Of a DNA stretch of 13,636 nt, positions 1,850 to 13,636 are shown one piece after another. The notes under the pieces are model-generated. The model was not told the origin of the DNA, did no database searches, and saw only the letters and a list, made by a program, of their open reading frames with translations. Within the stretch, counting starts at the first letter, position 1. Each line of letters opens with the position of its first letter. The position numbers and the translations under genes are program-made. The stretch is from a virus, in IMG/VR virus record IMGVR_UViG_3300045988_101024. One strand, 5' to 3'.

Positions 1850-2488
1850 CTAATAAATCATTAAACAAAAATTTTCTACGAAACTTTCTGCAATCAGATC
1901 ATATAAATTAAACACCACTAAATCTCTTTCGCTTTGTATCATCTGTTGAGAAGTTGTTACACCAATGTTTCCATGTGCTCTTCCGGTTCTTGTGTGTTTT
2001 CCGGTTCTTCCATCGTTTACATTTTCTTTTTCTGTGTTAGTAATACTGCCATTTTCTGTTGTGTCTCCATCCGTGATCTGTTTTGCATGATCCGCAAGAC
2101 CTGCGTTGAAAGCGGTATTCTGATCTGTAACGTTAACGCTGTTCATGATCTCGTTTGTGCTAGTGCTTTTTACAGTGTTATCTCTTGCACTAGAAGTAGT
2201 TTCATCGTCAGTATCTGTCCAATCTTCCATACGATCGTAGTTTTCGATCGGGTTGTATTCTAACACTGTCGTATCATATAACTTTTTCCAGTTAATTTGA
2301 TACTTGTTACTCCATATTGTGATACGATTTTTCATGAAATTAAAATCAGGATATAAGACTTCTAATTCCCTAGTCCGCATTAAAATTGCATCAATAGCAA
2401 TCTGTTTCTCAAGCCCTTTCGGAACATTGAACCCGTCAAACAACGTTTTGTCATAATTGTATAATCCCTCAACACTCAGTAAGCTCAA
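1850..2488 (-). CDS. Putative lower collar / head-tail adaptor protein (call based on position)
   Basis: 212-aa ORF with a TTG start at 2488, 7 nt after GGGAGGTG. The alternative ATG frame stops after a few codons. It lies directly downstream of the connector gene, as gp11 follows gp10 in phi29. I recognise no diagnostic motif. Confidence 0.55.
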   Translation of the reverse strand: MSLLSVEGLYNYDKTLFDGFNVPKGLEKQIAIDAILMRTRELEVLYPDFNFMKNRITIWSNKYQINWKKLYDTTVLEYNPIENYDRMEDWTDTDDETTSSARDNTVKSTSTNEIMNSVNVTDQNTAFNAGLADHAKQITDGDTTENGSITNTEKENVNDGRTGKHTRTGRAHGNIGVTTSQQMIQSERDLVVFNLYDLIAESFVENFCLMIY

Positions 2489-3429
2489 TCATTATCACCT
2501 CCCAATGTTTCACGTGAAACATTTTTCTTATTTGGATCGTGTCTCCAATTCACACTCACATCCACACCAAACATTTTCTTAACATCAGTGCAACTTTTCT
2601 TCCAACCATCCAACCACATTTCCATCCTTGTTGATGTTTCCACATCATTACTTTCAGCTTCAGAGGATATCATTCTTTCTTTCTTGTCTGATCTGGCAGA
2701 CGGGATACCAATTTCAGTACAAAAAAGTTCTTCCAATCTTCTCAGGGTGTCCAGAACATCACCGGCAATATAGTTTTGTCTAAGATTATTAACGAAATAA
2801 TCCCATGGTTCTTCCGTCAGATCCCCTCTTTTTATTCTTAATTTTTCGTCATAGAAAACAGCTAATTCACCGCTCATAACCTGATCCATGACTTTTTTCA
2901 GACTTTCTGCACCTGCTTTATTCCTTGCTCTGAAAACATATGCAAGTTTGCTGTTCATAACGTTCATATCTAAGGATTCCATCGTGATAGCCATTTCATT
3001 TGCATATCTTCCCACCAAATCCATAATTCCACCATAGTCAGATGTACATTTAAATAGCACACACTGTTCGCCAATTACAGGCTCAATAACACCTTTTAAG
3101 AGCGGATTACTAATAACCGCCTGAGCTGGTCTGTAAAAAACATTATACCCTTTGAGTGTACATCCCTGTGGAATAACACCAAATTTGTCGGTATTAATAA
3201 CTGCCACAGTACCCCAACAATACAAACAATAAAGAAAATAATCTTTATCCCAGTTATCAGGCACATTCCATTTCATTACAGATATAGCTTTCTGTAATAA
3301 ATACCGTTGAAAATACCAAAACAACTGTGTATTTTTACAGTGATTAGTACTCGGGTTAATACTGCTATTATACTGATTGATATAATTATACATCACAGGT
3401 GCTCCAACACCTGTATTGCATCCAAACAT
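2485..3429 (-). CDS. Head-tail connector (portal / upper collar), phi29 gp10-like
   Basis: 314 aa, close to the 309 aa of gp10, with GGAGGTG upstream of the ATG at 3429. The C-terminal segment SARSDKKERMISSEAESNDVETS resembles the conserved KKERM...SND region of phi29-type connectors as I recall it. The stop overlaps the next gene's start. Confidence 0.8.
   Translation of the reverse strand: MFGCNTGVGAPVMYNYINQYNSSINPSTNHCKNTQLFWYFQRYLLQKAISVMKWNVPDNWDKDYFLYCLYCWGTVAVINTDKFGVIPQGCTLKGYNVFYRPAQAVISNPLLKGVIEPVIGEQCVLFKCTSDYGGIMDLVGRYANEMAITMESLDMNVMNSKLAYVFRARNKAGAESLKKVMDQVMSGELAVFYDEKLRIKRGDLTEEPWDYFVNNLRQNYIAGDVLDTLRRLEELFCTEIGIPSARSDKKERMISSEAESNDVETSTRMEMWLDGWKKSCTDVKKMFGVDVSVNWRHDPNKKNVSRETLGGDND
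2506..2521. promoter_or_regulatory. Copy 1 of the perfect palindrome TGTTTCACGTGAAACA (extends to a 20-bp palindrome, 2504-2523)
   Basis: Read directly. It lies in the last codons of the connector gene (NVSRETL), 4 nt upstream of the GGAGGTG RBS and 17 nt upstream of the TTG start of the next gene. Confidence 0.85.
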
Positions 3430-5929: not shown

Positions 5930-7129
5930 CTATTCCAAAACAAAAACAAGGCCGTTTTCTGTAAGATCATTCCAGTATCTATCAGTGAAATGATGGTAAA
6001 CATTCCAATATCCACCTGCGCTGTTAAACGGTGTTGTACTGCTCCAATGATTAATAGTCGTAAGACCCATAGCTTCTTCGTCAAACAGCACCGCAAAAAT
6101 ATTGCTCATTGCCTGAGCTTCACCTTTTTCAACACTTCCGTCTGGTTTCATGACTGACGGTGTGACGTTAATTCCCATCGGGCTTTCCAATGACTGCCAG
6201 AAATTGACTTTTTCGTTTGTTGCGATTTTGAGGTACTGATCATGGAACGTATTACTCAGTACCGTGGTGTCAGCCGTATGCAGATCGGGACTGAACATCA
6301 TAATATTCTGCATCCGTAACGGTGTATGTCTTGCGATTTCTTTCCCCGTAATATTTGCGTGAAACCTTGTTGATCTCTCTGTGAAAAAGTCCATGTATGT
6401 CATGATCTTTGCACACGCCCATCGGTAGAAACTCGGGAAGTTATCCGCTTTACGCACATCATCCGCGGTTAACTGAGAACCGTTCTCATCATTGTACATA
6501 GTCAGAAGCTTAACAACATGCTCCCCTGTAAACCCTTCCGTTCCTTCGGTAACACCTGTCTGCCAGATGTTTTTAGCTCCAATGTAATTCGCAACACAGG
6601 CGCGTGCCATGGTTTCATGAGCCTGTTCAATCATATCCATTGTGTTCTGAGTATACATGGTCACAAACTGAGCAAACTCGTCTGGATTCCTAAACGCCTG
6701 GTCAAGCTGATCTCGGAAATAAGTCCTGTGTCTCTGGAATACCTGTCCGCCGTAGAAATTTGTCTGTAAAACTTTTCCTTTTTTGATCTTGTACATGTCA
6801 ACCGCTGTATCATCCGCAAGTGGCTGTCTCTGGTCATCTTCCCAGTCATCGTCCAACATACCCAGTTTTCTTACATGGTTTCCCCACTGCTGATTTGTTT
6901 TTCTCAAGCCTTTAAATTTGGCATTATATGGGCGAATAGAAAAGATAGTTCTATCCAATACCTGAGAAATGCTGTTCATGATCCTGTCATTTCCTGCAAG
7001 TAACGTGGTCTGAGCCTGAGCCACGAACGAGCTAGTGTCTGTGGCTTTCATGGTTTCCACGCCTGTAGCATGCTTAACGATATCATTTAATATTGTACTG
7101 ATCTGGTCAAACGTTAATGTATTCGCCAT
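5930..7129 (-). CDS. Major capsid protein
   Basis: 399-aa ORF directly after the scaffolding gene (TAATG overlap) with GGGGGTGA upstream. The N-terminus MANTLTFDQISTILNDI... and the size fit the capsid proteins of small phi29-like podoviruses. The call rests on position and size. Confidence 0.75.
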   Translation of the reverse strand: MANTLTFDQISTILNDIVKHATGVETMKATDTSSFVAQAQTTLLAGNDRIMNSISQVLDRTIFSIRPYNAKFKGLRKTNQQWGNHVRKLGMLDDDWEDDQRQPLADDTAVDMYKIKKGKVLQTNFYGGQVFQRHRTYFRDQLDQAFRNPDEFAQFVTMYTQNTMDMIEQAHETMARACVANYIGAKNIWQTGVTEGTEGFTGEHVVKLLTMYNDENGSQLTADDVRKADNFPSFYRWACAKIMTYMDFFTERSTRFHANITGKEIARHTPLRMQNIMMFSPDLHTADTTVLSNTFHDQYLKIATNEKVNFWQSLESPMGINVTPSVMKPDGSVEKGEAQAMSNIFAVLFDEEAMGLTTINHWSSTTPFNSAGGYWNVYHHFTDRYWNDLTENGLVFVLE

Positions 7130-7593
7130 TATTTTTCACCCCCTGTAAGACCCTCATAGTTTGGAGGGTTGATGATACTTGCAATAGCTTCTTCCGTAGT
7201 TACCTGCTTCGGAACAGCATTCTGCATCAGGTTGACGTTATTACTCTGCACTGCGCTTGTGAGATTTTTAAGCGCGCTGAGAACATCATTCTGATCTCCG
7301 ATCTGTCTTGCCATCTGAGCCTGTGTCTGCGGATATGCCTGTGCCTGTGCCTGTGGATATGTATGTGCCTGTGGATATGTCTGTGCCTGTGTATATCCCT
7401 GTGCACCCATCTCCTGTGGATAGATCTGTGGATAGATCTGTGGCTGTGGCTGTGGCTGTGGCTGTGGCTGTGGCTGTGGCTGTGGCTGTGGCTGTGGCTG
7501 TGTGGCACGCTGTGTTCCTGTGCCTGTCATTGCGAAAATTTCATTTTTTGTAAATCCTGCCGTAATAAGTGTGATAAGATTGTCTAACGTCAT
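7129..7593 (-). CDS. Putative scaffolding protein with an internal Pro/Gln/Tyr low-complexity linker
   Basis: 154-aa ORF with AAGGAGGG upstream and an ATGA overlap with the upstream gene. It lies immediately upstream of the capsid gene, as gp7 precedes gp8 in phi29. A helical-looking N-terminus and C-terminus flank (PQ)n, IYPQ x2 and YPQA-type repeats. Confidence 0.6.
   Translation of the reverse strand: MTLDNLITLITAGFTKNEIFAMTGTGTQRATQPQPQPQPQPQPQPQPQPQPQIYPQIYPQEMGAQGYTQAQTYPQAHTYPQAQAQAYPQTQAQMARQIGDQNDVLSALKNLTSAVQSNNVNLMQNAVPKQVTTEEAIASIINPPNYEGLTGGEK
7438..7497. repeat. Perfect hexanucleotide microsatellite (CTGTGG)x10, which is (CCACAG)x10 on the coding strand and encodes the PQ repeats
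   Basis: Counted directly: units start at 7438 and recur every 6 nt up to 7492. They are preceded by two 12-nt units ctgtggatagat (7414-7437) and followed by one imperfect unit. Degenerate ctgtgcctgtg-type repeats extend down to about 7318. Confidence 0.95.
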
Positions 7594-7835
7594 ATCTTAT
7601 AATCCCTCCTTAGATATTTTTTGTGTGAAAATCCTGTGGAAATAATTCCGTTGTGCTCGTAGGTAATTGCATACCAGTTTTCCGAATAGCATCCTAGGCA
7701 GATGCACTTTGTATTTTTTGGCATTTCCGCAATTACTGTTCCGTCTGTGTTCGGCTCTGCACGGATCATCAGAGGTTCTGTGTTCGTTGTGACTATATAC
7801 ACACCCCTGATATTTTTATCGTAATTGATCGTCAT
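7590..7835 (-). CDS. Standalone bacterial SH3 (SH3b)-like domain protein, a possible cell-wall-binding module
   Basis: 81 aa. PLMIRAEPNTDGTVIAEMPKNTKCICLGCYSENWYAITYEHNGIISTGFSHKKYL follows the SH3_3 pattern (xVRxxPxxxxxVIgxlxkGtxvxvlgxxxxWykIxyxgxtGyvxxxYL). GGGAGTG lies upstream, with ATGA overlaps on both sides. Confidence 0.65.
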   Translation of the reverse strand: MTINYDKNIRGVYIVTTNTEPLMIRAEPNTDGTVIAEMPKNTKCICLGCYSENWYAITYEHNGIISTGFSHKKYLRRDYKI

Positions 7836-8029
7836 TCTTTTTCACTCCCAGTAATATGGTCTGTAAGCTTTGTGATCGCCTGAGTGTTGTTGTTGAGTGC
7901 ATCTGTCATGTTTTTCATTTCTTCCTTGTGAGCATCGGTTTCTTTCGCCCATAGATAGAAAGTTGCGATAAGACACGCACAAGGAACACCAATGTTACTA
8001 ATGAGTGTAGATAATGAGTTAATATCCAT
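7832..8029 (-). CDS. Small single-TM membrane protein, YvrJ-like; candidate holin
   Basis: The start is moved to the ATG at 8029 (MDINSLSTLISNIGVPCACLIATFYLWAKE...), 5 nt after GGAGGTG. The hydrophobic segment followed by a charged coiled tail resembles the YvrJ family. The 103-aa track ORF extends over noncoding operator-like DNA and has no RBS. Confidence 0.55.
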   Translation of the reverse strand: MDINSLSTLISNIGVPCACLIATFYLWAKETDAHKEEMKNMTDALNNNTQAITKLTDHITGSEKE

Positions 8030-8071
8030 GTTTTCACCTCCCATGATTGAAGTAGCACAATATATAATATG

Positions 8072-8087
8072 TGTTTCACGTGAAACA
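8072..8087. promoter_or_regulatory. Copy 2 of the palindrome TGTTTCACGTGAAACA; candidate operator proximal to the late operon
   Basis: Read directly. It is intergenic, with its promoter-distal edge 42 nt upstream of the ATG at 8029. It is followed on the coding strand by catattatatatt, which holds possible -10 elements (TATTAT/TATATT). Confidence 0.8.
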
Positions 8088-8105
8088 TTAAAGAAGATGA
8101 GAACC

Positions 8106-8121
8106 TGTTTCACGTGAAACA
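8106..8121. promoter_or_regulatory. Copy 3 of the palindrome TGTTTCACGTGAAACA; candidate distal operator
   Basis: Read directly. It is 34 bp centre-to-centre from copy 2 and immediately downstream (minus strand) of the 8124-8154 hairpin and its T-run. Confidence 0.8.
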
Positions 8122-8266
8122 AAACATATACAGGCTTTGACACTCTGTATATGTATGAAAGATTAAGTGTTACAAATTCTTGAGTTGTACATACTCATGC
8201 ACATTGGATATTATATATCCCACGCTCCCAACGTGTTGTACGTGTGCCACGAACACTTGTCTTTCT
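8118..8266 (-). ncRNA. Hypothetical ~150-nt noncoding transcript, a pRNA-like packaging RNA candidate or a structured late-operon leader
   Basis: The ends are inferred from the strong promoter at 8274-8302 and the hairpin plus T-run at 8124-8154. There is no ORF with an RBS. Local hairpins include GGATAT-ata-ATATCC (8206-8220) and GTGTT-CGTG-gca-CACG-tac-AACAC. This is the only sizeable noncoding region in a genome that encodes gp10-like and gp16-like packaging proteins. Confidence 0.25.
8124..8154 (-). terminator. 10-bp inverted repeat (ACATATACAG, 11-nt loop, CTGTATATGT) followed by TTTTGTTT on the minus strand; possible weak intrinsic terminator or attenuator
   Basis: Read directly. The stem is AT-rich (3 G:C pairs) and the loop is long, so termination efficiency is uncertain. 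Confidence 0.4.
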
Positions 8267-8273
8267 ACGAAAG

Positions 8274-8302
8274 ATTATAGCAAATTAAAAAGGACAAGTC
8301 AA
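8274..8302 (-). promoter_or_regulatory. Near-consensus sigma-A promoter: -35 TTGACT, 17-nt spacer, extended -10 TGcTATAAT
   Basis: Minus strand reads aTTGACTtgtcctttttaatttgcTATAATc. The -35 is at 8297-8302, TG at 8281-8282 and the -10 at 8274-8279. It overlaps the 3' half of the early-operon terminator hairpin. Confidence 0.65.
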
Positions 8303-8311
8303 TACTTGTCC
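8281..8311 (-). terminator. Rho-independent terminator of the early/ATPase operon
   Basis: Minus strand reads GGACAAGT-attg-ACTTGTCC followed by TTTTTAATTTG. The 8-bp stem overlaps the last codons and the stop of the ATPase gene. Confidence 0.75.
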
Positions 8312-9348
8312 TTGAAATAATTTTCAAATAGTGATTTTGAGGTGATATCTTCAAACGTGATTTGGTTAGATAGGTACATATCCCATAGGTATACGTAGTC
8401 TCTGCGAAAAGCTTTTATATCCTTGTCTGACTGTGTGTAGGTGGGAGGGTTTCCTGAGTGATGCCTTGTAACGTATATCGTGTTTTTATTTTTTCGTTCG
8501 TAGATTGTAATAGAATCAATACGACATAGTGGTATTAATTCTTTGATGTTCGTTGGTTTGATGTTCGTATAATCAGCGGAATAGAATTCATTTCCGAGTG
8601 CCATGCGATTGAAATTGGAATCAGCTCCTGACATTTTGTATAGAGCTGTTTCTTTTTTCCTCTCTGAAATTGGAGAGTCATATAAGTTGAAAAGTCCAAT
8701 CCCACGTTCCTGCATAATTGACACTGACTGTTTTCTAATGTCCATTGCAGATACTTTTTCCATGAGATTATTTTCAATGAACATATTACATGAGAGATTT
8801 TCTGAGTTAGAAAATAATAGAAACTGAATTGGTGTTTCTCCATCTAACTCTCTGTTTCTGTTCATTGTCTCGTATGCGTTTTTGAACGCATATCCTGCGT
8901 TTTCAACTTTTCGCTCTCGTTTTTCAGGAATGAACTCGTCATATATTCCTATTTCTACGTCTGACGCGTCAAAACCTCGTAAATTCGCGAAAGTGTTTAG
9001 CGCGATTGCATAACCTAAAATCTCTCCTGTATATACAAGTTTTCCATTATCGTCTTTATATGTGTGATAAAATCCGGCAACATTTTTCCCAATCGTTTTT
9101 GGATAGATTGACCACCCCATGTCCTTGTTAAGTTTTTTAAAAGGCGACAGCTCAGGAATTTTGATAGTATCAACCTGTGCTTGTAAAGAACGCATGTACA
9201 CAAAAATTTTTTTATGCTCAATACAATATTTAAGACCGCCGTATGTTTTCCCCGTACCACGACCACCCCAAATATAATTGAACTTTTGTCCATATCCTAA
9301 AATAGCAGGTATCGAAAGATACCCGCTATTTTCATATAATGATAACAT
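8299..9348 (-). CDS. DNA encapsidation (packaging) ATPase, phi29 gp16-like
   Basis: 349 aa. Walker A is WGGRGTGKTYG near the N-terminus, followed by KKIFVYMRS (compare gp16 GARGIGKS...FIYVRR). Walker B-like is VEIGIYDEF. The size is close to the 332 aa of gp16. Confidence 0.88.
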   Translation of the reverse strand: MLSLYENSGYLSIPAILGYGQKFNYIWGGRGTGKTYGGLKYCIEHKKIFVYMRSLQAQVDTIKIPELSPFKKLNKDMGWSIYPKTIGKNVAGFYHTYKDDNGKLVYTGEILGYAIALNTFANLRGFDASDVEIGIYDEFIPEKRERKVENAGYAFKNAYETMNRNRELDGETPIQFLLFSNSENLSCNMFIENNLMEKVSAMDIRKQSVSIMQERGIGLFNLYDSPISERKKETALYKMSGADSNFNRMALGNEFYSADYTNIKPTNIKELIPLCRIDSITIYERKNKNTIYVTRHHSGNPPTYTQSDKDIKAFRRDYVYLWDMYLSNQITFEDITSKSLFENYFKDKY

Positions 9349-9349
9349 A

Positions 9350-9787
9350 TTATTTCTGTGGCTCTGTCATTGGAACATATGTTGAGCCATGTCCCATACG
9401 GTTAAGCGCACGATCCGGGGAAACTAGTGCGCAGATAAGATAGTCACGACCTGCTTTTGACTGCCTGTGAAGAACCTCAATAAAAAATAATTCTGGTACT
9501 TCGTCCATATCAGATAAACGGTCTGTTATATCTTCGAATGCTTCACGGAAAGTTGCTGACTGACCAGAAAATACATCACCTGTATTTGCGTCCTGCACTG
9601 AAATACAGGTGATTTCTTGTCCGTTGCTATCAGTTGTGAGATATTTCACCCACGCTCCAACACAGATAAGTTCTCTGTTCTCTACATTTTTTAACGATGT
9701 GATTGCCGGTGACTCGATAAGGTCATACTCTGAATATGTGTCAAGATTTCCTGATGATTTAATAATTCTATACTGTTTATTTTTCAT
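9350..9787 (-). CDS. Hypothetical early protein; a possible replication accessory protein such as an SSB, from position only
   Basis: 145-aa ORF with AAGGAG upstream of the ATG at 9787. It lies between the polymerase and the ATPase. I recognise no motif. Confidence 0.6.
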   Translation of the reverse strand: MKNKQYRIIKSSGNLDTYSEYDLIESPAITSLKNVENRELICVGAWVKYLTTDSNGQEITCISVQDANTGDVFSGQSATFREAFEDITDRLSDMDEVPELFFIEVLHRQSKAGRDYLICALVSPDRALNRMGHGSTYVPMTEPQK

Positions 9788-9790
9788 GAT

Positions 9791-10054
9791 TTAGTTCTCC
9801 TTTTCTTTTGATGATTTTGTAAAAGTTGCGTGCTTCAAAAACGTTTCTGCGTCCATGCCATAGATTTTTGTTTCTTCCTCATTTCGCTCCCAGTCGATAA
9901 CGATTCCTAAATTTCTTTTTTTGACCTCTTTGTTAATCTGCTCATCTGTGAAATGTCCGACTAAGACTAACTCTTTTATAATCTCACATTTATTCTCAGG
10001 GTCATAACAGATAACATTGATCTTGTTCACTGCTAACTCTCGTGTAATTTTCAT
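9791..10054 (-). CDS. Hypothetical early protein
   Basis: The start is moved to the ATG at 10054 (MKITREL...), 6 nt after GGAGGTGA, giving 87 aa with a Lys/Glu-rich C-terminus. I recognise no motif. Confidence 0.6.
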   Translation of the reverse strand: MKITRELAVNKINVICYDPENKCEIIKELVLVGHFTDEQINKEVKKRNLGIVIDWERNEEETKIYGMDAETFLKHATFTKSSKEKEN

Positions 10055-10107
10055 GTTCTCACCTCCATATATCATTTTCTATTACAATAATTATTATATA
10101 TCCAATG

Positions 10108-12189
10108 TTAATTTTTGTCAAGTGTTTCTCTAAATTCTTTTAAAGTTCTTGCATCTGCTAGAATCCTGCGGTACTCGTCTGTTATGCCTATTGTGTAAGT
10201 TGACGGACGTATAACTACGTTTTGTGTTATGTGTAGAGTGTGACCATCAACTCTGTAATCACCGTATACTGTATCATTATATACGCTTTCAGTTCCACCA
10301 GATTTTGAAAAAGTGAAACCTGTTTTAAACGCTGTAATACCTCCGTAGGTTTCAAGTTCTGACGGTGCACTTTTTTTGTTAACTCCTGCTATTGTTGCAT
10401 GTAATATTCCGTCCTCTGTGCGGTATACATATTTTTTAGCGCCTAGCGTGGAAAATTCGGTGTAAGTATCTTCATATTCATATACGCCCATATAGTGTGT
10501 GATACCGTATTTGTCCGTGGCATATGCCTTATTTAATATACTCTGATCTTTTCGTTGTTTGTTATATTCTTCAAAACGTTTCTCTATATCATCACCAGAA
10601 ATTATGACGTATTTCACGGAATCGGTATCATCGTATATATAACGATCTCCGACTATATTAATCCCCTCTTTTAATCTCAGACGCGCCCATGCTGTCACCC
10701 ATACGCCCCATTGATAAGGTAGAAATGCAGTTCGATTATATTTTTCGAGTAATGTTTCACGTGAAACACTCTCATCGACTGTGTATATATCCTCTGCCGA
10801 TTCTGTGAATATTAATGATTGTTTAACTGGTGTCTGTACCATCATTCCATATCCGGAGTTAAGCAATGCTTTTTGTAGATTGTAGAAGAGTTCCTGTTCA
10901 ACTATTCCTTTAAGCTCTGTTTTATCTGTGTAATATTTACGGAATATGTCTTTTAATGGTTCTGGCAATGAATCATATTTACTCTCATAACATTCAGTCA
11001 CTTCAAAACGTTTCCATTTATATTCATGTTTCATGATCTCATAGTCAATATCAGTGAGTGTTGTTTCAAGATACTCTGCACTTAAAATTCTACCATTGTC
11101 TAATGTTTCACGTGAAACATTTCTACATTTTGAATATGATATATAAGGAGCGCCATAGTATTTATCAATTTGTTCAATTCCTGTGATTTTGCAGCGAAAT
11201 AATAATGCTTTTCCTCTATCCAGTTTCTTTTCTATATCTTCCTCAGTAAGTGTTCCAATGTAAACAAAACGTGTCATAGGAAAAACACAATTTAAAACAA
11301 CATCGGGATATGAGGATGATCTATCACGAGAACCAATACCCATGATCTTTTTGCCATCAGCTCGTATCACAGTTCCTGAGTAGTAACGGTTGGCGTGGGT
11401 GTCTCCACCGCGAAACGCTTCTTCTAGCAGGTTGAATACATCAATATTTGGAAAAATGTCTTTATGTCTACGTGACCATCCATACATAGCTTTTTTTGTT
11501 TCACGGCGAACATAACCAGTTGACGTGAGAGGTAATGTGTATAAATTATCATTATATAAAACCATTCGCTTGTACATTGCTTCCAATAGACCAACAGTAT
11601 CGGTAGCACTATACTCCATTTCATACTCAGTTAGAGGTGTCCATGGGTAACGTTTTTTTGCATAATTGAAAATTTCACCTGATAACTTCGTATGTTCTAC
11701 TTTCATTTTTGATGTGAAAGAACTCAGCGACATATTTGTCTGGAGGTATGAACAACGAAATTCAAAACGGTTTAGCATTTCACATTTTAAAATTTTTCTC
11801 GATTTTATCGCAAAAACTTCATTCGGTGAAAAGGTATATATACCACGCAAAAACTGAAATTCATATGATAAATTGTGTACAAAAATCATGTAATACGCGA
11901 AATTATCATCATTCATAAGCTGATCTAAAAATAGCTCAAATTCTGTCCACGTTCTTCCTATTATAGTGTCAATATGTAAATCATCCAGAAACAAAATTGA
12001 AAATTGCCAAACATACATAATAGACTGTTCGATGTCATCTAACCTTGTTGTTTCAATGTCAAACGCACACATACAGTTTTTATAGCCTTTTGCTTTTTTA
12101 CTTCCTTTATTTGATCTAGTATCATGTAAACATGGGATATTCCGTATTCTATTATAATTATAACTATCAACCGTATACAGATTATCCAT
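10108..12189 (-). CDS. Protein-primed family B DNA polymerase
   Basis: 693 aa with AGGAGGT upstream. Exo I is FDIETT, Exo II HNLSYEFQF, Exo III YSATDTVGL. Motif A is DRSSSYPDV, motif B KALLNSGYGMM, motif C YIYDDTDS, and the KxY motif is GAKKYVY. The genome has ITRs. Confidence 0.97.
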   Translation of the reverse strand: MDNLYTVDSYNYNRIRNIPCLHDTRSNKGSKKAKGYKNCMCAFDIETTRLDDIEQSIMYVWQFSILFLDDLHIDTIIGRTWTEFELFLDQLMNDDNFAYYMIFVHNLSYEFQFLRGIYTFSPNEVFAIKSRKILKCEMLNRFEFRCSYLQTNMSLSSFTSKMKVEHTKLSGEIFNYAKKRYPWTPLTEYEMEYSATDTVGLLEAMYKRMVLYNDNLYTLPLTSTGYVRRETKKAMYGWSRRHKDIFPNIDVFNLLEEAFRGGDTHANRYYSGTVIRADGKKIMGIGSRDRSSSYPDVVLNCVFPMTRFVYIGTLTEEDIEKKLDRGKALLFRCKITGIEQIDKYYGAPYISYSKCRNVSRETLDNGRILSAEYLETTLTDIDYEIMKHEYKWKRFEVTECYESKYDSLPEPLKDIFRKYYTDKTELKGIVEQELFYNLQKALLNSGYGMMVQTPVKQSLIFTESAEDIYTVDESVSRETLLEKYNRTAFLPYQWGVWVTAWARLRLKEGINIVGDRYIYDDTDSVKYVIISGDDIEKRFEEYNKQRKDQSILNKAYATDKYGITHYMGVYEYEDTYTEFSTLGAKKYVYRTEDGILHATIAGVNKKSAPSELETYGGITAFKTGFTFSKSGGTESVYNDTVYGDYRVDGHTLHITQNVVIRPSTYTIGITDEYRRILADARTLKEFRETLDKN
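10753..10768. promoter_or_regulatory. Copy 4 of the palindrome TGTTTCACGTGAAACA, inside the polymerase gene
   Basis: Read directly. It is in frame as V475-S-R-E-T (DESVSRETLLEK). Confidence 0.8.
11104..11119. promoter_or_regulatory. Copy 5 of the palindrome TGTTTCACGTGAAACA (20-bp palindrome, 11102-11121), inside the polymerase gene
   Basis: Read directly. It is in frame as V358-S-R-E-T (CRNVSRETLDNG). Confidence 0.8.
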
Positions 12190-12812: not shown

Positions 12813-13035
12813 TCGGCACACCTCCCTCTAATTTATTGTAATACACAGGACGAAAGCTTTCTTCAAATTCTACAACATAGTCCTGTACGATTGCCATTGC
12901 TACCGCTCCTGTGTATGCTTTCACAAGTAGATAATCACATTTATTTTTACACTCACTTTTCATGATGTTTGGTGTATTCAATTCTTTAATATAAACCTTA
13001 TACCATGATTTCTCCCTGTTTAATGGTCTGCTCAT
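12778..13035 (-). CDS. Hypothetical early protein
   Basis: The start is moved to the ATG at 13035 (MSRPLNREK...), 7 nt after GGAGG, giving 85 aa. It overlaps both neighbouring genes. Confidence 0.55.
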   Translation of the reverse strand: MSRPLNREKSWYKVYIKELNTPNIMKSECKNKCDYLLVKAYTGAVAMAIVQDYVVEFEESFRPVYYNKLEGGVPIDNKKVLFEEE

Positions 13036-13216
13036 TATATAACCTCCATTTCTCAACACATCTCAAGATATCGTCAAAACTTGTCATTGCTGACCACATT
13101 ATATAGGGCTTATGGTCAAAACACTTTTTAAATTCAGTGCAACATTTCGATTGACTACATAAATGACAATATTCAGTATCATTACATGTAAAACAAATAT
13201 CACAATAATTTTTCAT
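12998..13216 (-). CDS. Cys-rich small early protein, a possible zinc-ribbon or zinc-finger protein
   Basis: The start is moved to the ATG at 13216 (MKNYCDICFTCNDTEYCHLCSQSKCCTEFKKC...), 9 nt after GGAGG. There are eight Cys in the first 32 residues, including CxxCxxC and CxxC spacings. Confidence 0.55.
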   Translation of the reverse strand: MKNYCDICFTCNDTEYCHLCSQSKCCTEFKKCFDHKPYIMWSAMTSFDDILRCVEKWRLYNEQTIKQGEIMV

Positions 13217-13311
13217 TTCGTATATCCTCCTGACCATTTAGCACCGCACCAAACACCATACGGAAATATTAGTATAGCTCCGAAACAAAACCAACAAATA
13301 GCATCAAACAT
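13213..13311 (-). CDS. Possible 32-aa hydrophobic micro-protein
   Basis: MFDAICWFCFGAILIFPYGVWCGAKWSGGYTK. Its start overlaps the upstream stop (TAATG) and its stop overlaps the downstream start (ATGA). It is below the ORF-track size cutoff and has no separate RBS. Confidence 0.35.
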   Translation of the reverse strand: MFDAICWFCFGAILIFPYGVWCGAKWSGGYTK

Positions 13312-13542: not shown

Positions 13543-13636
13543 TTCGAAAACATCAACCCTGTATGTGTTTCCCATACACGGACACAGAACACATGTTCGA
13601 AAACATCAACCCTGTATGTGTTTCCCATACACGGAC
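13543..13636. repeat. Right inverted terminal repeat, with terminal unit 13584-13636 and inner copy 13535-13583
   Basis: It is the reverse complement of 1-94 with two mismatches. On this end the two tandem units are identical over 49 nt. The window ends exactly on the repeat. Confidence 0.9.
13586..13599. promoter_or_regulatory. GAAC-N4-GTTC (AGAACACATGTTCG) LexA/Cheo-box-like motif in the right terminal unit
   Basis: Read directly. A degenerate second copy, CAAACACATGTTCG, lies at 13533-13546, 15 nt upstream of the -35 of the early promoter. Confidence 0.3.

Follow-up and report, generated by a model that had tools for sequence, protein, structure and literature searches.

A structured RNA at the head of the late operon of phi29-like gut phages, a candidate packaging RNA

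The noncoding gap and the genome around it

In this work, we have used computational approaches to examine a noncoding gap in IMGVR_UViG_3300045988_101024, an IMG/VR virus record of 13,636 nucleotides (nt) that is called here the window, meaning this whole stretch of DNA at its full length. Our results show that a genuine structured RNA is encoded in this gap, on the strand of the genes. The gap spans 269 nt (8030-8298) between the gene for a Podovirus_Gp16 encapsidation ATPase (8299-9348) and the first late gene, which codes for a 65-aa holin-like membrane protein (7832-8029; match to phrog_4898 holin, E 3e-4). The initial annotation of this DNA had described the gap as the only substantial noncoding region of the genome, and had placed in it a near-consensus promoter nested in the early terminator, a 10-bp hairpin with a T-run, two palindromes and the late ribosome binding site (RBS); it had also recognised gp10-like and gp16-like genes. 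Each of these elements was found again in our analysis, at the same positions. The next-largest intergenic gap genome-wide measures 32 nt, and there is no second gap above this size able to house a noncoding RNA. The long open reading frames are all on the minus strand, and the genes, promoters and RNA elements of the window described below are given on this strand.

The promoter, of the sigma-A type, reads TTGACT-17-(TGc)TATAAT (8274-8302), scores 11 out of 12 and has an extended -10 box. Its -35 box sits within the loop and the 3' arm of the hairpin that, together with a U-run, ends the ATPase gene (8290-8313; ATPase stop codon at 8299-8301; 10 pairs, loop of 4, TTTTTAATTTG, dG -13.2). The close relatives used for comparison were 80 IMG/VR loci with ATPases 81-99% identical, of which 79 extend beyond the ATPase stop codon and 78 are distinct over the compared stretch. 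They form three clades, all with the promoter. The terminator-like hairpin at the ATPase end, by contrast, occurs in the subclade of the window only and is missing in clades L049-56 and L059-79. A promoter of the form TTGAC[AT]-17-TAnnnT, mostly with TGn, is found at the same place in 22 of 22 representatives from every clade, the spacer being 18 in the cultured phage AD70P2, and loci of the wider family carry TTGACA-17-(TGn)TAnnnT, the -35 box usually lying within the last ATPase codons. Strong sigma-A-type promoters inside gene ends are seemingly the rule for this phage group. In the window, a consensus-perfect TTGACA-17-TATAAT (10093-10121) lies across the 3' boundary of the polymerase gene and precedes the genes of a dsDNA-binding protein, a 145-aa protein and the ATPase; counterparts of the 145-aa protein in relatives match Phi29_Phage_SSB. 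At the other end of the gap, the first late gene has its translation start at 8027-8042 (GGGAGGUG plus ATG), with the RBS GGGAGGTG at 8035-8042 and the ATG at 8027-8029.

The surrounding genome is of the phi29 type. The inverted terminal repeats at both ends (~90 bp, 1-90 and 13547-13636, the outermost 55 nt identical) indicate that the window is a complete linear genome of 13.6 kb, phi29-like and of the protein-primed type. The terminal-repeat unit is partly duplicated inside, with a second terminal 20-mer ~53 nt inward in the right arm. Phage-type Pfam matches in the window are PF05352, PF05894 and PF25622, and Pfam assigns, besides the ATPase, a Phi29_MCP capsid protein (5930-7129) and a gp10-type connector or portal (2485-3429); the connector and the ATPase are each 22% identical, over their length, to phi29 gp10 and gp16, respectively. 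A PHROGs search additionally recognised the dsDNA-binding protein and the holin-like first late gene. The 693-aa product of 10108-12189 is a DNA polymerase, its counterparts in relatives carrying DNA_pol_B_2 and that of AD70P2 being annotated as DNA polymerase. The related sequences originate from human faecal samples, and the nearest cultured relatives are the Amedibacillus phages AD70P2 and AD70P3 (Guelinviridae).

A covarying fold on the gene strand

The core of the RNA is a domain of ~109 nt (domain I, 8157-8265), defined by covariation and by the covariance models R1 and R2 described below, in which a closing helix, P1, encloses a three-way junction. Arm 1 of the junction consists of helix P2, a 7-nt bulge on its 5' side, and the hairpins P3 and P4; arm 2 is the hairpin P5. 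Transcription probably starts at 8266-8268, so that the first nucleotide of P1 lies 1-3 nt past the expected start. The 5' strand of P1, GAAAGA-C-AAGUGU (8253-8265), pairs with ACACUU-AA-UCUUUC (8157-8170); 99.8% of its positions are paired across the alignment, and 8 of its 11 pairs have changed on both sides. P2 joins GCACA (8243-8247) to UGUGC (8199-8203), is 100% paired with two compensatory pairs, and reads GGUCA/UGACC and CCACA/UGUGG in the more distant loci L211 and L207. It is followed by the bulge, J2/3 (CGUACAA, 8236-8242), and by P3 (CACGU-UGGGA-GCGUG, 8221-8235), which shows one compensatory change (CAUG/CAUG, in L028) and has an invariant loop, YGGGA in the family of the window and CGGAA in most other clades, with CAGAA as a further loop type. 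P4 (8206-8220) is variable in sequence, with 5 of 5 pairs changed on both sides, and specific to the family of the window; it is missing from L207, L211 and the clades with a reduced RNA. P5 (GAGU-AUGUACA-ACUC, 8182-8196) completes the junction, with its loop at 8186-8192.

This fold was derived with RNAalifold from 40 distinct sequences (alignment A1), in which 94.3% of cells are paired, compared with 23-45% when the partners are slid along the alignment. Changes on both sides were seen in 30 of the 45 pairs, and the observed values were matched by none of 500 shuffles. The check proposed in the initial annotation, covariation across homologous intergenic regions, thus bore out its structured RNA. 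Taken together, the covariation spans ~100 related loci, and conserved U-G pairs identify the strand of the RNA as the gene strand. According to model R1, each family genome has a single copy of the RNA, matched in the window at 8117-8273. More distant members led to the same structure: in a MAFFT alignment of 19 distant central domains, 82.8% of cells were paired, against 28-38% with slid partners. Model R2, built from distant members without any sequence of the window's clade and without the pairs between bulge and P5 loop, finds the window RNA at 8180-8249 (E = 0.0012), which is its sole match in the window below E = 5. In 26 distinct members aligned with R2, 92.5% of pairs are kept, compared with 26-38% in the control, and the bulge-loop pairs are kept in 84% even though the model lacks that pairing. 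Without the use of any alignment, the minimum-free-energy shape [[][]] is common to 19 of 23 family cores and the phi29 packaging RNA. The family cores have folding z-scores mostly of -2 to -4; for the window sequence alone, the z-score is -5.4 for the whole leader and -3.7 for its first 154 nt.

Three other pairing schemes were set aside. The structure given by RNAfold for the single sequence, in which local hairpins (CGUG/CACG and GUGCAU/AUGUAC) replace P2, was rejected because covariation favours P2 and P5, and for the same reason a pseudoknot between GUGC/GUAC and GAGU/ACUC was dropped. A pairing of the loop of the 3' hairpin P6 (GUGUC) with GGCAC of P2 showed, by eye, no covariation across clades.

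The bulge and the P5 loop are themselves complementary, GUACA (8237-8241) of the former to UGUAC (8187-8191) of the latter, within the longer CGUACAA and AUGUACA. This pair co-evolves in every clade and occurs in more than ten sequence states. It reads GUACA/UGUAC in the clade of the window, GUAC/GUAC or GUGC/GCAC in clade B and GGGUAA/UUACCC in clade C, and further states are AGACAA/UUGUCU, GGAC/GUCC, AACCAA/UUGGUU, GGUCAA/UUGACC, CGAACA/UGUUCG, GUAAC/GUUAC, UUGCA/UGCAA, AUGCA/UGCAU, UACACAA/UUGUGUA, AAAAGGAA/UUCCUUUU, GUCG/CGAC and GCUAUA/UGUAGC. The contiguous Watson-Crick run averages 5.05 bp between cognate bulges and loops and 2.77 bp between non-cognate ones, and the observed sum was reached in none of 100,000 permutations. 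The search for complementary loops suggested in the initial annotation was therefore fruitful, and the covarying elements occupy the positions of the right- and left-hand loops of the phi29 RNA.

How widespread is this RNA? A search with the ATPase gave 1589 homologues at E<=1e-10, and loci sampled at falling ATPase identity all carry the promoter followed by the same RNA, the family extending to phages with an ATPase identity of only 29-34%. Most lineages have a reduced form of 62-95 nt, consisting of P1, P2, the bulge, a single P3 with the CGGAA loop and P5, without P4 and usually without P6. The helix sequences are lineage-specific, as illustrated for P1 by GGGGGAGUG/CACUCCCCC, AGGAGGAA/UUCCUCCU, UAGGCGGUUA/UAACCGCCUA and AUAGGUCAACG/CGUUGACCUAU. 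The cultured phage AD70P2 has a member between the packaging gene and the next gene, which was recognised by eye and for which R2 is not significant. A search of L201-L206 with R1 gave no match, and the members in these loci were later recognised by eye and with R2. A scan of IMG/VR with the 15-mer CACGTYGGGAGCGTG returned family members along with chance matches in large contigs, and R1 matched 42 of the 80 loci listed. The RNA family is not found in Rfam 15, whose 4227 families, screened at E<=10 against the window and 11 related loci, yielded no match to this part of the genome. In those parts of the literature that were searched, there is no report of a packaging RNA outside Bacillus phages, and an anonymous earlier listing is possible. 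A catalogue of structured-RNA candidates from IMG/VR mentions six motifs upstream of Podovirus_gp16 genes, with no claim of a packaging RNA (PMC10690425), and it may include this motif anonymously. Work on Clostridium Picovirinae-like phages mentions such an RNA by analogy only (PMC3362512).

These results bear on the simplest alternative, that the gap contains no functional RNA and works at the DNA level only, through a promoter, operators and the ATPase terminator. The conserved promoter and the palindromes described below are indeed there. Such signals would leave unexplained the compensatory changes in every helix and in the bulge-loop pair, which extend over lineages whose ATPases are 29-50% identical, as well as the strand-specific G-U pairs and the fact that R2, a model made without the window's clade, still finds the RNA of the window. 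We consider this alternative extremely improbable.

The late operon, the 3' hairpin and the palindromes

In all lineages, the RNA is the first transcribed element ahead of the late genes (holin-like, lysis, scaffold, capsid, tail and portal), which form an operon of 8 kb. In the window, a 154-aa protein in the scaffold position upstream of the capsid gene (7129-7593) has a long run of PQ dipeptides and, after it, YPQ-type repeats, a low-complexity tandem repeat at the DNA level. The initial annotation had stressed that the locus abuts the ATPase gene, which holds for the window and not as a conserved linkage. In MT835998.1 (L201), the early and late modules diverge in the manner of phi29: the early one, with the ATPase gene, is inverted, and the RNA (1015-1165) and the ATPase region (9375-10439) are 8 kb apart; the RNA still precedes the holin-like first late gene. 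This layout shows that the RNA keeps its linkage to the 5' end of the late operon and not to the ATPase gene. In most clades, 20-50 nt separate P1 from the RBS with no terminator between them, so a discrete RNA would need processing. A U-run directly follows P1 in L201, where it is a UUUUU after a 12-bp P1, and also in L274 and L210.

Some clades, that of the window among them, have a 3' hairpin, P6 (8124-8154 in the window), with a 10-bp stem (8124-8133/8145-8154; dG -13.0) and an 11-nt loop, AGUGUCAAAGC (8134-8144). TTTTGTTT lies directly after this hairpin, and the U-run UUUUGUUU(C) (8116-8124) is found in all sequences of clade A. It is absent from clade C and L296 and poor in clade B, L207, L211 and L214. 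P6 itself is present in the family of the window (clades A, B and C), L207, L211, L214 and L296, and is missing from most clades; where it occurs, its loop rGUGUCAmAGC is conserved and its stem covaries, with 9 of 9 pairs compensatory. A simple terminator scan missed the hairpin because of the length of its loop. The description of P6 as terminator-like is thus adequate for the clade of the window and not elsewhere, and the conservation pattern argues that P6 is a functional domain doubling as a terminator in that clade, rather than a mere terminator.

Could the RNA act purely in cis, as a leader of the lysis and structural operon in which bulge and loop form an intramolecular pseudoknot? We regard this as a serious possibility, if the less probable of the two leading explanations. 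Such a leader could make the polymerase resistant to termination, attenuate transcription at P6 or at P1 with its U-run, bind an early protein through the P3 loop, or protect the 5' end of the mRNA. The place of the RNA at the front of the late transcript in every clade, even in the rearranged MT835998, is what a leader would predict, as is the scarcity of terminators before the RBS; the hairpin or P1 followed by a U-run in several clades would suit attenuation, and a constitutive strong promoter right upstream of the holin and lysin genes would seem to call for control after initiation. A portal without the RKR motif and a short closing helix, both discussed below, also fit a leader better, and in L275 and L295 the 3' strand of P1 is able to pair with the real RBS. 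Against this, the specific arrangement of the phi29 packaging RNA would be unexpected in an arbitrary leader. The junction nucleotides are variable, unlike those of ligand-binding riboswitches, and neither the window nor the 11 related loci match a cis-regulatory or riboswitch family of Rfam. The U-run is not conserved, and in a search that was not exhaustive no alternative antiterminator pairing was seen. Moreover, the RNA and the late genes are separated, in the clade of the window, by a U-run and a second promoter region, and some of the late mRNA would thus be made without the RNA element.

RBS sequestration by the 3' strand of P1 was considered separately and rejected as a consistent mechanism, since it appears in the minimum-free-energy fold of only 2 of 12 leaders. 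In L275 (2246-2360), L295, L274 and L210, the 5' strand of P1 is Shine-Dalgarno-like (GGAGG, GGGGGAG) and the 3' strand is anti-Shine-Dalgarno-like. In the whole-leader folds of L275 and L295 this 3' strand pairs with the real RBS, which is not so in the other ten leaders tested.

Two structured cis-acting RNAs are natural comparisons for a leader. The put RNA of HK022 and the EAR element of Bacillales, the latter pseudoknotted, are antitermination RNAs near the start of long operons that act on their own polymerase. The RNA described here resembles them in its position at the head of an 8-kb late operon and differs in its fold and in the lack of an Rfam match; a terminator scan of the window identified no convincing internal terminators in the late operon. 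In the pR'-tR' leader of phage lambda (the '6S RNA'), a constitutive strong late promoter gives a short terminated transcript and the late genes need read-through. That leader has no conserved three-way junction or covarying loops, whereas here the terminator is clade-specific and the fold universal.

The conserved loops of P3 and P6 could also point to a phage small RNA with another role in trans, as a decoy or regulator of a host protein or RNA. Its own strong promoter, the terminator-like end in the clade of the window, and two loops that are conserved in sequence while the stems vary would be in keeping with this. However, the rest of the phage genome contains no antisense target of the P6 loop, most clades lack P6, and both the covarying bulge-loop pair and the strict position in the late operon would be left unexplained. 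We therefore consider a small RNA of this type unlikely.

Between P6 and the late genes lie two copies of a 16-bp perfect palindrome, TGTTTCACGTGAAACA: a distal one (8106-8121), overlapping the U-run, and a proximal one (8072-8087). The initial annotation had considered an attenuator controlled through them. They are two of five perfect copies of a genome-wide motif, and look more like an operator than like part of an attenuator. This motif is a 14-bp palindrome, GTTTCACGTGAAAC, often extended to AATGTTTCACGTGAAACATT, present at 2507-2520, 8073-8086, 8107-8120, 10754-10767 and 11105-11118 where 5e-5 copies are expected. The three genic copies are in frame and read (N)VSRET(L), one at the C-terminus of the portal and two in the polymerase gene. 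Several related lineages also carry GTTTCACGTGAAAC, AD70P2 in its polymerase gene, and L290 and L291 differ by exactly the 14-bp palindrome block. The motif is probably a protein-binding site, with a half-site orientation that we take to be unlike that of the cre, Rex, Fnr/Crp and LexA boxes. As RNA, the palindromes would form a stem of only 5 bp, and we discarded them as hairpins. Two nt past the proximal palindrome there is a -10-like TATTAT (8064-8069) without a -35 box, read from the sequence and not called by the promoter scan. Clade A conserves the block TATTATAT(G/A)TTGTGCTA, as does clade C in part, the palindrome is followed by TATAAT in L291-293 and L211, and intergenic palindrome copies have a -10-like box within 2-6 nt and no -35 box. 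From this arrangement, we infer that the palindromes may be the operator of a second, regulated late promoter. An early 79-aa protein (12998-13237), cysteine-rich (CDICFTCNDTEYCHLCSQSKCC), is possibly a zinc-binding regulator and as such a candidate palindrome binder.

A proposed packaging RNA and its comparison with known systems

What, then, is the function of this RNA? The initial annotation had offered a pRNA-like noncoding RNA, that is, one resembling the packaging RNA (pRNA) of phi29, or else a structured leader, and these two remain the leading explanations; the palindromes, which it linked to the control of an attenuator, look operator-like instead. We propose that the island is the gene for the packaging (prohead) RNA of this phi29-like phage, a reading for which we judge the scales to be evenly balanced. 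In phi29, the pRNA is needed for motor assembly and packaging (PMC13595911). By analogy, the bulge-loop pairs would join neighbouring RNA molecules into a ring at the portal vertex of the prohead. Contact with the prohead would be made by the conserved P3 loop, and P1, perhaps with P6, would dock the gp16-like ATPase. In the clade of the window, partial termination at P6 would free a discrete RNA of ~150 nt, and the late genes would be expressed by read-through and from the second promoter guarded by the two palindromes. In relatives without a terminator, the RNA would be the 5' end of the late mRNA, freed by cutting, and some clades would terminate at P1. An arrangement of this kind, with the RNA in the late mRNA, would couple the amount of RNA available to the production of the head proteins.

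More broadly, the pRNA may be ancestral to the phi29-type motor. In this widespread group of human-gut phages (Guelinviridae-like, including AD70P2), a miniaturised version of 62-110 nt would then open the late mRNA, be set free by termination or by processing, and bind a portal without RKR; for this wider scenario we hold the chances to be slightly short of even. A 2024 review restricts the pRNA to phi29 and its relatives among the Bacillus phages, and quotes the hypothesis that this RNA substitutes for a connector-binding ability lost by gp16 (PMC11476376); the pRNA has also been called the sole identified natural RNA that multimerises through intermolecular contacts of identical molecules (PMC4201828). 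If our proposal is correct, there is a second, very divergent and much smaller class of pRNA in abundant gut phages. Such a class would tell whether an RNA adaptor belonged to phi29-type motors from their origin, and it would single out the parts that a pRNA really needs (a three-way junction, a kissing pair and a single conserved loop). It would also explain how a ring of RNA can dock on a portal that has no RKR arm, and provide new self-assembling scaffolds for RNA nanotechnology. If the RNA is instead a cis-acting leader, it would be a new and widespread pseudoknotted element for the control of phage late genes, and a striking convergence on the pRNA fold. The existence of a cultured member, AD70P2, makes the question directly testable.

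Several observations weigh against a packaging function. The covariation of bulge and loop is compatible with intermolecular and intramolecular pairing alike, and an intramolecular pseudoknot looks sterically possible. The conserved linkage to the late operon instead of the ATPase gene, and the short distance without terminator from P1 to the RBS in most clades, were described above. There is also no score-level link to phi29: the Rfam model of the pRNA, RF00044 (Phage_pRNA), which as a positive control finds the phi29 pRNA at 145 bits, matches neither the window nor the 11 related loci at E<=10, R1 reaches 8.8 bits on the left end of phi29, and R2 finds nothing at the pRNA locus when run on the whole phi29 genome. 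P1 has 6-13 bp in all members, compared with ~25 bp for the A helix of phi29, the region reported to bind gp16. The portal differs as well. The N-terminus of phi29 gp10 is MARKRSNTYR, whose RKR motif is essential for pRNA binding (PMC12084888), whereas that of the window portal, MFGCNTGVGAPVMYNYINQYNS, contains no basic residue and no RKR motif. The portal N-termini of relatives are mostly without a basic motif, L202 having KRRK. In the N-terminal arm of the portal (3364-3429 in the window; also in L201 and L203), a conserved aromatic motif, AP.Y.YIN...H.KN, replaces the basic RKR arm, and this motif bears on the docking of any RNA or ATPase.

In other respects, too, the RNA departs from the pRNA of the Bacillus Salasmaviridae phages represented in RF00044. 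P2 and P5, with 4-5 bp, are shorter than the C and D helices, and the family of the window has the extra hairpin P4. The RNA stands first in the late operon and usually shares its transcript, while in phi29 the pRNA is a separate early transcript from the genome end.

The likenesses concern the type of phage and the architecture of the RNA. As in phi29, the genome is linear with terminal repeats and codes for a gp10-type connector, a gp16-type ATPase and a phi29-type capsid protein. The bulge AACC and the D loop GGUU of phi29 are the kissing sequences that join neighbouring pRNAs. In the RF00044 consensus, the A helix is followed by the C helix, a 9-nt bulge on the 5' side (AUUAAACCC), the E hairpin, the C' strand, UUU and the D hairpin (loop UGGUU). 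The same order is found here as P1, P2, bulge, P3, P2' and P5, so that P2 would be the equivalent of the C helix, J2/3 of the right-hand CE loop, P3 of the E hairpin, and P5 of the D hairpin with the left-hand loop. In both RNAs, the bulge of arm 1 is complementary to the loop of arm 2 and covaries with it, and one gut clade uses AACCAA/UUGGUU, against AACC/GGUU in phi29. Both have a conserved hairpin loop in arm 1, in both the 5' end of the transcript opens the closing helix, and in both the structure is conserved rather than the sequence. In the clade of the window, the 3' hairpin P6 after a short linker recalls domain II of the pRNA (PMC5066667). The sizes are also comparable, 62-110 nt here and 117 nt for phi29 with a minimal domain of 75 nt; ~75 nt of phi29 pRNA are enough for connector binding and self-association, and natural kissing pairs have 2-5 bp (PMC4201828). 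By analogy with these features, we classify the family as a divergent, miniaturised, late-operon-linked pRNA-like RNA, whose predicted fold is the topology of domain I of the phi29 pRNA, kissing loops included.

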